A DNA stretch of 64,000 nucleotides from an uncultured Ignavibacteria bacterium (GTDB lineage: Bacteria > Zixibacteria > MSB-5A5 > SM23-73-2): contig CAYURP010000002.1 of NCBI GenBank assembly GCA_964447175.1, forward strand, positions 937 through 64,936, in the 5' to 3' direction. Positions 3,160 through 7,879 of this stretch are shown here, piece after piece (position 1 is the stretch's first letter; every line of letters begins with the position of its first letter). A program made the position numbers and the translations under genes. The notes under the pieces are model-generated. The model searched no databases. It had not been told where the DNA came from and saw nothing but the letters and a program-made list of their open reading frames with translations.

Positions 3160-3189
3160 TTGACAATTAAGGCTTTGGGATTATATTAT
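3160..3189 (+). promoter_or_regulatory. candidate sigma-70 promoter (TTGACA-N16-TATATT) upstream of the repeat-protein gene
   Basis: ttgaca at 3160-3165 and tatatt at 3182-3187. It lies about 225 nt upstream of the 3415 start, implying a long 5'UTR. Confidence 0.3.
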
Positions 3190-3414: not shown

Positions 3415-4890
3415 ATGAGAGCTCTGAGAATGTTGTTTTTTGTTGGGTTAGCTTTCATCTTTGTTTGCTCATCTTTGATTTATGCTGGTGTGCCCCAGAT
3501 GATTAATTATCAGGGGAAAATAACTACGCCTGCAGGGGCTTTAATAGATACAACTATCGGAATGATATTCACCATTTATGACGACAGCACTTCGGGTAAT
3601 ATCTTTTGGGCAGATACCTTAGGTTCAGTGTCGGTTGAAAAAGGTATGTTCAGCGTCCTGTTAGGGAGTGTGAATCCGATTCCGGACTCTGTTTTCGATG
3701 GAAATATCAGATATTTAGGTATCAAAGTGGGTGGCGATGCGGAGATGACTCCCAGGAAAGTTATTGCCAGCGTGGCTTATGCTTACCGGGCAGGCTCAGC
3801 AGATTTAAGTGCTCATAATCACTGGGGCGAAACCTGGGCTGGTGCAGACACAGGATTGATCCTTACCAGTACCGGCGTATCCAGAGACAACGGATCTGTT
3901 GGAGTCTCCGGTAGAGGCGTTAATTCAGGAGTGCATGGAAGTAGTAATACCGGCAGCGGTGTTTCCGGAAGTAGCCAGGATGGACGCGGGGTCAGTGGTT
4001 CCAGCAATAATGGCACCGGTGTCCAAGGAACTAGCCCCAATGGACAGGGAGTCGAAGGTGCAAGCACCTGGGGCACTGGGGTTTCAGGTACCAGCAACAA
4101 CGGCAATGGAGTGTCTGGTTCCAGCACTAACAGTAATGGAGTGCAAGGGTCCAGCGGTAGCAACACCGGCTCCGGAGTAAGAGGAACCAACAGCTCTCCT
4201 GAGGGAGATGGAGTGAGTGGCCAAGCTGATGGGGGTGACGGCGTTCATGGCGAAAGCAATACTGGTGATGGTGTCTCGGGTGGCAGCAATTCGGGGATTG
4301 GCGTTCACGGTGCAAGTGCTGAGGGCACCGGAGTTTCGGGTGAAAGCGTAAACGGCACAGGTGTTCATGCAAGCTCAGCCTTCGGAACCGCCCTGGTGGT
4401 TGATGGCTCCAGTATATTTAACTGTAACGCTCAGTTCAACTGTAATGTAACAGTCGCAGGAACTCTTGAGGTGAAAAAACTCACAGCATGGGAAATCGAC
4501 CCTATCATCCTTGAGTTATTCAAAGTAGACCCATCTCAGGTTTACCAAAAAGGAGATGTTCTGGTTATCGATCCTGAAAGTGATACTTACAAGCTTTGTG
4601 ATGCTGCAAACGACACAAAGGTTTCCGGTGTTGTCTGGAATGCAGACCCGAACGAGAATGGTGAGGTTCCAGTTGTGATTCTGGGAGCTAAGACTCCATC
4701 CAATACCGTTTACATAAAAGTAGATGTCAGCTATGCTACCATTCAGAGAGGTGATTTGCTAACATCATCTCCAACCCGAGGACATGCTATGAAGGCGACC
4801 GAGCCCAAGCCTGGATCCATAATAGGCAAGGCGCTTGAACCATTTAACTCAGGGAAAGGTCTTATAAAAGTCTTTGTCAACTTGCACTAA
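3415..4890 (+). CDS. secreted repeat protein: conserved N-terminal domain + ~15 Gly-rich decapeptide repeats (G-x-G-V-x-G-x-S-x-x) + C-terminal beta-rich domain
   Basis: 491 aa; signal peptide; RBS aaggag 6 nt upstream. The N-terminal ~110 aa are about 85% identical to the next gene. Residues 159-324 are a decapeptide array. Confidence 0.75.
   Translation: MRALRMLFFVGLAFIFVCSSLIYAGVPQMINYQGKITTPAGALIDTTIGMIFTIYDDSTSGNIFWADTLGSVSVEKGMFSVLLGSVNPIPDSVFDGNIRYLGIKVGGDAEMTPRKVIASVAYAYRAGSADLSAHNHWGETWAGADTGLILTSTGVSRDNGSVGVSGRGVNSGVHGSSNTGSGVSGSSQDGRGVSGSSNNGTGVQGTSPNGQGVEGASTWGTGVSGTSNNGNGVSGSSTNSNGVQGSSGSNTGSGVRGTNSSPEGDGVSGQADGGDGVHGESNTGDGVSGGSNSGIGVHGASAEGTGVSGESVNGTGVHASSAFGTALVVDGSSIFNCNAQFNCNVTVAGTLEVKKLTAWEIDPIILELFKVDPSQVYQKGDVLVIDPESDTYKLCDAANDTKVSGVVWNADPNENGEVPVVILGAKTPSNTVYIKVDVSYATIQRGDLLTSSPTRGHAMKATEPKPGSIIGKALEPFNSGKGLIKVFVNLH
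3889..4386 (+). repeat. intragenic tandem 30-nt (10-aa) Gly/Ser/Val repeat array
   Basis: SGVHGSSNTG / SGVSGSSQDG / RGVSGSSNNG ... about 15 units. It generates several spurious antisense ORFs. Confidence 0.85.
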
Positions 4891-4954: not shown

Positions 4955-6952
4955 ATGAGATGTAGAAGTGTAGTTTTTTGGATGATAGGAGTTTTAATAC
5001 TCCTACTTTGCTCTATTTCATCTGCTGGCGTGCCACAGATGATAAATTATCAGGGGAAGGTAACTACGCCCTCAGGTGCTTTAATAGATACGACTATCGG
5101 AATGATATTCACCATTTATGATGACAGCACTACGGGTAATACCCTGTGGGCAGATACCTTGAGTTCGGTTGCGGTTCAAAAAGGGATTTTCAACGTTTTG
5201 CTGGGCAGTGGAAATCCCATTCCCGATTCGGTTTTTGATGGCAATATTAGATATTTAGGTACCAAGGTGGGTAGCGATGCGGAGATGACTCCCAGGAAAG
5301 CGATGGTGAGTGTAGCTTATGCCTACCGTGCCGGAACTGCAGACGGAGGTGGCGGAGGAAGCTGTGGCTGGGTAGATGATGGTGTGGTTGTCAGGCTGGA
5401 GACCAACACAGATAATGTGGGAATCGGAACCACCAGTCCGGGAGCGAATCTGGACATCGTTTCCACAAATCCGAATCTTCGTGTGGGCACTTCATCTGGT
5501 TCCCCGGTTATTACTCTAGATAAAGCTTCAGGCTTTTGGGGATATCTGGAATTCAGAGATGCCGGAGCATCCAGGTGGCAAGCAGGCGTAACAAATAGCA
5601 ACGATTATTACATCCTGAACTGGCCATCTTCTAAATATGTTTTCTATGCCAATAGCGCAGGTAATGTGGGCATCGGAACCACCAGTCCCGATGAGAGATT
5701 ACATATTGTTGGAAACATCAAGATGGTTGATGGAAATCAAGCAGCAGGCTATATCTTGACTTCTGATGCAAATGGTGTGGGAACTTGGCAGGCAGCATCG
5801 GGTGGTATTGGTGGTAGTGGTGCAACTAATTATCTCCCGAAATTCACAGGCTCTACCACCCTTGGCAACTCTGTGTTCTACGAAAACGGAGGGAAAATAG
5901 GTCTTGGAACCACCAGCCCGGGTGCAGATCTGGACATTGTTTCCACAAATCCGAATCTCAGGCTGAGCACAACATCTGGTTCTCCAGTCATCACCCTGGA
6001 TAAAGCTTCTGGCTACACATCCATACTCGAATTCCGTGAGGGTGGAGCTTCCAAGTGGCAGGCGGGAGTATCGACTACCAACGATTATTACATCTTAAAC
6101 TGGCCTGCTTCCAAATATGTTTTCTTTGCTAACAGCGCAGGTGACGTTGGTATCGGGACCACCAGTCCAAGTGAGAAACTTACTGTTAATGGTGACATCG
6201 ATATGATACAGGGCCAATCACGGATTCACGGCACAGGAGAGATAAGTTTTGACTGGTCTGCAGGAAGTACCTACGACAATCCCAGTCTTCATGGTTTTGA
6301 ATCTAAAGATGAAGCAGGAACCTGGGGAGATGAAATCAGGATAAATAGTATGAATGATATAATCAACACGGTTGATGCAAATGATAATGACGCAACGTCT
6401 TATTTCAAGGTTCAACATCACTCAACCGGAGATGGTGAGGATCTTTTCTGGGTGCGTTCAAGTGATGGTTATGCATATCACAAAAGCAGGTTGGGAATAG
6501 GCACCACCAGTCCGGGAGTTGATCTGGACATCGTTTCCACAAACCCGAATCTCAGACTGAGCACCACATCTGGTTCCCCGGTTATTACTCTGGATAAAGC
6601 CACAGGCTTTTGGGGGTACCTGGAATTCCGAGATGCTGGATCATCCAAGTGGCAGGCGGGTGTAACAAGTGGTAACGATTATTACATCCTGAACTGGCCT
6701 GCTTCCAGATATGTTTTCTATGCTAATAGTGCTGGTAATGTAGGACTCGGAACCACAAGTCCCACCGGCCCGTTGGACGTTAATGGCAATGATATCCGTA
6801 TTCGCAGCTCCCAAACGCCGGCATCTTCTACAGCAGATGGTTACACAGGAGAGATTGCCTGGGATGCCAGCTACATTTATATTTGCACCTCTGGAGATGG
6901 TCCGGGCGGTGGAACAGATAGCTGGAAAAGAGCAGCTTTAAGTACATGGTAA
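4955..6952 (+). CDS. secreted repeat protein paralog: same N-terminal domain + three ~90-aa repeats (IGTTSP...LDIVSTNPNLR...DYYILNWP) + tail-fibre-like C-terminus
   Basis: 665 aa; signal peptide; RBS aaaggag. The C-terminus GEIAWDASYIYICTSG...SWKRAALSTW resembles the terminal motif of many bacterial and phage tail-fibre-domain proteins. This is recognition from memory, not a search. Confidence 0.75.
   Translation: MRCRSVVFWMIGVLILLLCSISSAGVPQMINYQGKVTTPSGALIDTTIGMIFTIYDDSTTGNTLWADTLSSVAVQKGIFNVLLGSGNPIPDSVFDGNIRYLGTKVGSDAEMTPRKAMVSVAYAYRAGTADGGGGGSCGWVDDGVVVRLETNTDNVGIGTTSPGANLDIVSTNPNLRVGTSSGSPVITLDKASGFWGYLEFRDAGASRWQAGVTNSNDYYILNWPSSKYVFYANSAGNVGIGTTSPDERLHIVGNIKMVDGNQAAGYILTSDANGVGTWQAASGGIGGSGATNYLPKFTGSTTLGNSVFYENGGKIGLGTTSPGADLDIVSTNPNLRLSTTSGSPVITLDKASGYTSILEFREGGASKWQAGVSTTNDYYILNWPASKYVFFANSAGDVGIGTTSPSEKLTVNGDIDMIQGQSRIHGTGEISFDWSAGSTYDNPSLHGFESKDEAGTWGDEIRINSMNDIINTVDANDNDATSYFKVQHHSTGDGEDLFWVRSSDGYAYHKSRLGIGTTSPGVDLDIVSTNPNLRLSTTSGSPVITLDKATGFWGYLEFRDAGSSKWQAGVTSGNDYYILNWPASRYVFYANSAGNVGLGTTSPTGPLDVNGNDIRIRSSQTPASSTADGYTGEIAWDASYIYICTSGDGPGGGTDSWKRAALSTW
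5420..6785 (+). repeat. three long intragenic direct repeats (~270-290 nt each; approx 5420-5700, 5900-6185, 6494-6785)
   Basis: Near-identical DNA stretches, e.g. ccaccagtccgggagcgaatctggacatcgtttccacaaatccgaatct recurring. Protein repeats start at aa 156, 316 and 514. Confidence 0.8.
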
Positions 6953-7070
6953 TGTTAAGTAGGAATGCAACAACTTGTTGTTGCGAATTACAGCAATCCA
7001 TATGGATTGCACTCCAAAACGTCTGGGATAAACCCAGACGCTACAACAAAAAATGGAGGTGTTCAGAAAA

Positions 7071-7525
7071 TGAACAGATTTAATATAATCAAATTGGCGG
7101 TGTTTTTCCTGGCGGTTTCTCTTTTGCTTTGCACAGGATTTTACGCTCAATCTTACTCCCAGAATTTCAAGTTGTTAACTGATGGTCTGGACAGCTTTGG
7201 TGGAAGATCATCATCCACAAATTTCTCCCTGAGAATAGGCTCAGGTGGTCAGCCGGGAGTTATCGGAACTTCCCAGGGTTCAAGTTTTTATGGACTTCAA
7301 GGCTATGTGAACACTGCGGCATTTGTGCACGGGGATGCTAACGCAGACGGGAACACAACCATCGCTGATGTGGTCTATCTGGTAAATTATCTTTTTAAAT
7401 CAGGTCCTGAACCAATCCCTCTGGAGACAGGGGATGTGAATGGCAACAATGAAGCCACTATAGCGGATGCGGTTTATCTGGTGAGCTATCTTTTCAGAGG
7501 AGGCAATCCACCGATTAATCTTTAG
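7071..7525 (+). CDS. small secreted protein with C-terminal type-I dockerin module
   Basis: Start chosen at the internal ATG with RBS ggagg. Signal-like N-terminus MNRFNIIKLAVFFLAVSLLLC. Two dockerin repeats, GDANADGNTTIADVVYLVNYLF and GDVNGNNEATIADAVYLVSYLF. Confidence 0.7.
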
Positions 7526-7611: not shown

Positions 7612-7648
7612 AGCCCACCTTGTCTTCAAGGTGGGCTTAGGTTTTTTT
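7612..7648 (+). terminator. rho-independent terminator (agcccacctt-gtcttc-aaggtgggct + T7)
   Basis: Perfect 10-bp stem followed by ttttttt. It is preceded by a second hairpin at 7549-7574 (cagaacctaact-caa-gttaggttctg). Confidence 0.6.
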
Positions 7649-7879
7649 GGATTGTGACCCTTCAGGTTCACCTGGTTTTCTAAAGAGTTGGAAGTCAAGC
7701 TGAAGCTTGACAATCCAATTCTTCGGGCGAAGACAGAGCTTCGCCCCCATGTTTTCTTACGACCACCTATAAATTCAAAATCTTTTGCTTGACAAAGTGT
7801 TATGATCTACCTATAATTCCTTAGGTTGATCCAGCATGGGTGGCTGTAACTTATTTACTTCTGCGTTTTTGTAAGTTCT

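Follow-up and report, generated by a model that had tools for sequence, protein, structure and literature searches.

Mosaic adhesive trimer (MAT) fibres were reported in Bdellovibrio bacteriovorus and described in 2024 as a prey-recognition toolkit of this organism (Caulton et al. 2024, Nat Microbiol, PMC10769870). Solved parts include Bd3182 (8OJN/8ONB/8ONC), Bd2133 (8OND), Bd1334 (8OML) and Bd2439 (8OL4); the proximal capping loop of Bd3182 comprises 14 residues (R656–H669, RVGVGTTAPTSALH), and its beta-helix is related to the K1F endosialidase, the T5 L-shaped tail fibre and the P22 tailspike cleft (PMC10769870). The cell-surface anchor of the fibres is still unknown according to the same authors (PMC10769870). 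Zixibacteria and Bacteroidetes go unmentioned in the supplement text, a text search of the article and its supplements for 'dockerin' returned nothing (PMC10769870), and our literature search found no work linking Zixibacteria with MAT-type fibres. Here we analyse a 64-kb stretch of DNA (64,000 nt; the window) from an uncultured bacterium of Candidatus Zixiibacteriota and consider it likely that the product of one gene in this chromosomal locus is a cell-surface fibre of the MAT kind, exported by Sec and probably homotrimeric, with an old internal triplication that selection has kept.

The gene (4955..6952, plus strand, as are its parts) is an intact ORF for a 665-aa, non-S74 MAT-like fibre protein, and an identical protein is present in a public collection (P0001). 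A signal peptide read from the sequence (aa 1–24, 4955..5026, ...SISSA|GVP) has a basic n-region, a hydrophobic core and small residues ahead of GVP, and residues 2–22 form a helix in the structure model. Next comes the N-terminal domain (aa 25–135, 5027..5359; placed by a family match and the model), which is conserved, beta-rich and presumed to be the cell-proximal or anchoring end. Repeat module 1 (aa 156–245, 5420..5689), with capping-loop motifs at aa 156 and 239 on either side, is separated by spacer 1 (aa 246–315, 5690..5899), which includes a widely conserved ...NIKMVDGNQAAGYILTSDANGVGTWQ... element, from module 2 (aa 316–405, 5900..6169), the most divergent copy. Spacer 2 (aa 406–513, 6170..6493), a unique insert of low model confidence (pLDDT ~40) whose sequence is kept in two relatives (P0002 and P0003), leads to module 3 (aa 514–603, 6494..6763), the positional orthologue of the last module of relatives. 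The C-terminal region (aa 604–665 plus stop, 6764..6952) holds a terminal domain with the signature PAS..TA.G..GEIAWD..YIYIC...W.RAALSTW, and the segment GEIAWDASYIYICTSG...SWKRAALSTW, singled out in the initial annotation as C-terminal, lies at the very end of the ORF. Residues ~233–284, overlapping spacer 1, are 69–78% identical in Flavobacteriaceae, Cytophagales and other Bacteroidota loci, and phrog_28668 matches residues 232–270 of the same stretch. The structure is an AlphaFold2 monomer model with a mean pLDDT of 66.8 (50–86 in the modules).

Several assignments were considered for this protein and set aside. The LLLC at residues 16–19 is a poor lipobox, and its Cys is missing in close homologues such as P0002, which argues against a lipoprotein anchor. 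Pfam and NCBIfam give no Por_Secre_tail or type IX secretion C-terminal domain match in the protein. A Pfam match to PorV (22.7 bits, cut-off 27) falls within a repeat module, which also explains why homologues give it, and we regard it as spurious. Peptidase_S74 (PF13884) is absent from the protein in a Pfam search even at E ≤ 1.

The N-terminal domain places the protein in a family. It starts at residue 25, with no gap behind the signal peptide, and the model shows beta strands, with pLDDT 92–96 over most of residues 30–110. NF053851 (Bdello_MAT_N) is the sole NCBIfam family with a significant match (E = 3.6 × 10−6, 26.9 bits, residues 15–87), and it also matches 63 of 75 homologues (best E = 1.5 × 10−11). 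This model was trained on Bdellovibrio and has a curated NCBI cut-off of 60 bits; both our protein and its upstream paralogue (27.8 bits) score far under that threshold, and membership is therefore at the level of the MAT superfamily and not of the Bdellovibrio subfamily. In a search of 1.8 billion proteins, the domain matched 25,995 cluster representatives at E ≤ 1 × 10−3, starting at residue ~24–26 in nearly all of them. Homologues share this domain and differ in their modules and tips, which include S74 (PF13884; for example, in P0012, P0016 and P0054), PTL_trimer (PF26696), YadA/UspA-like tips and the terminal domain found here. Relatives were found in Ignavibacteria, KSB1, Calditrichia and WOR-3. 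There are several fibre loci per metagenome-assembled genome, and some tandem arrays. The gene thus belongs to a known, very large family of MAT-like fibres, in which the N-terminal domain is the sole element common to all the fibres.

The body of the protein is also closest to the Bdellovibrio fibres. All nine Foldseek matches in the PDB at E ≤ 1 × 10−3 are Bdellovibrio MAT fibres (Bd3182, Bd2133 and Bd1334), with Bd3182 reaching E = 5.8 × 10−7 (target TM 0.62–0.67) and Bd2439 next at E = 7 × 10−3; these fold matches rest on moderately confident regions of the model, and whole-chain TM-scores are low. By sequence, phmmer aligns residues 307–374 (module 2 with its first capping loop, KIGLGTTSPGADLD) to RVGVGTTAPTSALH of Bd3182 (8OJN; E = 0.0024). 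As modelled, the fibre body consists of beta-helix blocks with capping loops, as MAT fibres do. The earlier proposal of a domesticated bacterial fibre or adhesin that is not part of a prophage agrees with these solved structures being the nearest relatives.

Likeness to phage proteins is confined to the regions beyond the N-terminal domain. A fold search of BFVD matched the model to 249 predicted viral proteins (E ≤ 1 × 10−3; best E = 1.8 × 10−19), and the named top matches are mostly cyanophage tail-fibre-like proteins and tailed-phage S74 (intramolecular chaperone) proteins. Two PHROG tail-fibre families match the protein: phrog_9942 (E = 2.9 × 10−13, residues 393–551, covering spacer 2) and phrog_18345 (E = 2.5 × 10−7). 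Cyanophage tail-fibre proteins are ~26% identical across residues 147–628 by tblastn; all such phage matches begin at residue ~147 or later and none spans the N-terminal domain. The C-terminal region matches 86 phage records by tblastn (E down to 1 × 10−6), and its last ~45 residues can be aligned to the very C-terminal ends of two phage proteins, a structural protein of Synechococcus phage S-CAM8 and gp76 of the Klebsiella jumbo phage KPN8, with the signatures YIYIC and W.RA.LSTW in common. Together with the MAT structures, these matches uphold the initial annotation's description of the protein as tail-fibre-like. Its suggestion of a T4 gp12-like fold was not borne out: gp34 matches are weak, nothing else of the T4 kind was found, and neither fold was adopted.

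The terminal domain itself is modelled as three short strands (pLDDT ~70). By eye, its YIYIK/C...WKRAALSTW resembles the foldon of T4 fibritin (...AYVRKDGEWVLLSTFL), and this candidate was rejected after gaining no support from profile search or hhalign: the profile of the domain retrieved chance antibody matches alone from the PDB (E ~0.5), and hhalign gave a probability of 0.2% against the foldon. The only positional hint toward the foldon is the place of the S-CAM8 homologue, immediately upstream of neck genes gp13 and gp14; in T4, wac occupies the position just upstream of gp13/gp14.

The gene is embedded in a bacterial neighbourhood. Immediately upstream lies a paralogous fibre gene (3415..4890, plus strand, 491 aa; NF053851 E = 1.9 × 10−6) that has the same signal peptide and an N-terminal domain 84% identical to that of our protein. 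Its body is made of Gly-rich ~10-aa repeats (a 30-nt tandem repeat occupies 4073–4155), and its C-terminus (...GSIIGKALEP...VNLH) differs. Downstream, a gene at 7070..7525 (plus strand) encodes a small secreted protein of 151 aa with a signal peptide, a conserved part of ~60 aa and a type I dockerin. A consensus scan detected a promoter-like site ahead of the first fibre gene (3160..3189, plus strand, 11 of 12 matches) and a terminator-like hairpin after the dockerin gene (7612..7637, plus strand; 11-bp stem with 7 GC pairs, then a T-run); between these two consensus-level features, the three genes could form one unit. A perfect sigma-70 consensus, likewise a consensus-level feature, precedes the gene for a TonB-dependent receptor (7789–7817). 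Beyond the paralogue, the upstream neighbours encode Asp/Glu racemase, Amidase_3 and SmpB, and the dockerin and receptor genes are followed by those for an NHL propeller, a C1 peptidase, a histidine kinase and a type IV pilus cluster. The gene context from SmpB to the dockerin protein is kept in relatives, with synteny in at least three other genomes.

A repeat search located three direct repeats of 272 nt (5418–5689, 5898–6169 and 6492–6763), almost exactly where the initial annotation had placed them, all of them in frame within the ORF. Copies 2 and 3 are 77% and 86% identical to copy 1, at spacings of 480 and 594 nt, and three copies of this length at such identity cannot be chance. The pattern IGTTSP...LDIVSTNPNLR...DYYILNWP...VGIGTTSP, recorded earlier for each repeat, is present in all three translations; written to cover every copy, the motif is G[IL]GTTSP...LDIVSTNPNLR...NDYYILNWP...VG[IL]GTTSP. 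Calling the copies near-identical, however, was wrong: their DNA is 75–86% identical (75.3–81.8% over 291 nt; 77.0–85.6% over the 270-nt codon-aligned modules), and the modules are 80–86% identical as protein.

The modules differ by dS of 0.51–1.02 with dN/dS of 0.13–0.14, and the longest exact shared runs anywhere in the gene are 26, 25, 22, 20, 17 and 17 nt. In DNA-level comparisons with two relatives (L112 and L002), module 3 is 88% identical to module 3 of L112, which exceeds its similarity to its sibling modules, and as protein it is 90–91% identical to module 3 of P0002 and P0003. The repeats are therefore old. Purifying selection is evident on both the repeats and the N-terminal domain (dN/dS 0.10–0.14). 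An 82%-identical orthologue from another sample (P0003) has the identical three-module order, and the order in the 3′ part is shared with both P0002 and P0003. More distant relatives range from three modules down to one (3, 3, 3, 2, 1, 1 and 1 among the relatives compared), and modules are therefore gained and lost, but over evolutionary time. The triplication, an old module duplication maintained by selection, is a stable structural feature and not a switch, and diversity in the family arises by the swapping of whole modules and whole genes among paralogues rather than by fast repeat slippage.

It had been proposed that the repeats are prone to frequent in-frame deletion or expansion, and in its strongest form this would make the protein a phase-variable or contingency adhesin, the long repeats of which recombine often and change its length in frame within a population. 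The three in-frame direct repeats, the varying copy number among relatives and the mosaic nature of module 2, relative to modules 1 and 2 of L112, all speak for it, and the last two indicate that recombination between modules happened in the past. Frequent recombination is nevertheless contradicted by the modest identity of the copies, their short exact runs and the unchanged layout in P0003, and we consider such an adhesin very unlikely. Exact runs of 17–26 nt do not exceed the minimal efficient processing segment that RecA-dependent recombination is known to need in E. coli, and dS of 0.5–1.0 shows no recent homogenising gene conversion. Moreover, an independent JGI metagenome contig (Ga0315537_1038719) carries the identical three-copy allele, being 100% identical over 2,713 nt that include all three repeats. 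That contig also makes it unlikely that mis-assembly of the metagenome bin produced the repeat number, a legitimate concern given that the genome was assembled from a metagenome and that repeats are known to cause such errors. With about one base in five differing between copies, assembly is unambiguous; the ORF is intact, the 3′ module order recurs in P0002 and P0003 from other samples, and we regard an artefact as extremely improbable.

The homology of the body and C-terminal domain to phage structural and tail-fibre proteins could instead mark the gene as a prophage or tailocin remnant, a leftover tail fibre without a cellular role. Against this, the annotated ORFs of the window include no phage gene (a Pfam scan that covered 31 of the 43 ORFs with 150 aa or more found no phage families), which bears out the earlier statement that no other phage genes are nearby, and the flanks include housekeeping genes (such as those for SmpB, an amidase and an Asp/Glu racemase). 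The locus is syntenic in other genomes, the signal peptide and bacterial N-terminal domain have no phage match, selection preserves the repeats and the N-terminal domain, and several such genes occur per genome in arrays; a remnant is accordingly very unlikely. A tailspike-like enzyme, in which the beta-helix blocks also carry glycan-degrading (depolymerase) activity, is unlikely too, if slightly less so. The Bd3182 beta-helix, the closest solved structure, has tailspike and endosialidase relatives (PMC10769870), and the module sequence is strongly conserved (dN/dS 0.13). Yet Pfam and NCBIfam show no glycosidase or lyase family in the protein, the ~90-aa blocks are much shorter than catalytic tailspike beta-helices, and we identified no catalytic motif.

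Under our preferred reading of a MAT-kind surface fibre, the signal peptide would direct Sec export and the beta-rich N-terminal domain would keep the fibre attached to the cell. In the sequence, this domain is succeeded by a Gly-rich linker and three ~90-aa beta-helix blocks, each capped at both ends by the loop [VI]G[IL]GTTSP...L, with two unrelated spacer domains between the blocks, and a small phage-type terminal domain takes the place of the self-cleaving S74 chaperone carried by many paralogues. The fibre is putatively trimeric and surface-displayed, the structure model being that of a monomer. The repeated blocks may stack along the shaft and set its length, and, by analogy with the clefted beta-helix of Bd3182, might bind glycan; the terminal domain is a putative distal tip or folding nucleus, and the fibre probably acts as an adhesin.

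The small secreted dockerin protein offers the one lead that could make testable what holds the fibres on the cell. Its dockerin is supported by Dockerin_1 (E = 1.2 × 10−7) and by matches to PDB dockerins, and its conserved ~60-aa part reads QNFKL..GGR.SS.NFSLRIGSGGQP... There are ~100 full-length homologues. The gene follows fibre genes at many Zixibacteria and Ignavibacteria loci; among the 73 fibre genes in the loci retrieved, 37 have it downstream. At such loci, fibre genes occur singly or as a tandem pair, each followed by the gene for the small secreted protein, the N-terminal part of which is disordered when modelled alone (pLDDT <50, compared with >90 for the dockerin). We raise, as a speculative and rather doubtful idea, two-part surface display in Zixibacteria and some Ignavibacteria, in which the N-terminal part of the small protein would bind the N-terminal domain of the fibre and the dockerin would attach the complex to an envelope scaffold that carries cohesin. 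If true, this would identify the surface anchor that Caulton et al. call unknown (PMC10769870), and the fibre system would prove to serve cell contact generally among sediment bacteria that are not predators.

Among known systems, the cyanophage tail-fibre-like and structural proteins (S-SM2, S-TIM5, S-B28 and S-CAM8) and S74 fibres are alike in the body, by fold and weakly by sequence, but they have no signal peptide or N-terminal domain of this kind and sit in virion gene modules, whereas our gene does not. The S74 'intramolecular chaperone auto-processing' fibres additionally carry the S74 domain that is missing here. Proteins of KSB1 and other FCB-group bacteria named 'tail fiber domain-containing protein' by NCBI belong to the same homologous set, but differ in modules and tips; P0054 (candidate division KSB1), for example, combines the N-terminal domain with a collagen-like stretch and S74, and in the KSB1 and Calditrichia examples the dockerin partner is not adjacent.

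The Bdellovibrio MAT fibres, of which the non-S74 subgroup is closest, are the best PDB matches by both sequence and fold and share more. In both, the signal peptide runs straight into a conserved, beta-rich N-terminal domain (~130 aa in MAT fibres), in keeping with the published description (PMC10769870); capped beta-helix blocks carry the capping-loop motif VG.GTT.P...L; C-terminal tips vary, with S74 and non-S74 forms within one family; and numerous paralogues occur per genome without phage context. The differences are that our protein has 665 aa compared with about 1,000, uses one particular block three times, ends in a terminal domain of cyanophage or jumbo-phage type that lies outside the six solved Bdellovibrio tips, and is encoded together with a small dockerin protein in a conserved unit. 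The host also differs, being a member of the Zixibacteria (FCB group) without a known predatory lifestyle. To our knowledge, Zixibacteria include no known predators, and the prey-handling role in Bdellovibrio is therefore not simply transferable. For the gene itself the outcome is mostly clarifying. The MAT architecture, in which an N-terminal handle precedes capped beta-helix blocks and tips that can be exchanged, is now seen in Zixibacteria. The 25,995 representatives of the N-terminal domain suggest that such fibres are a surface device of bacteria in general, either taken over from phage tail fibres or common to both, and are not special to predators.

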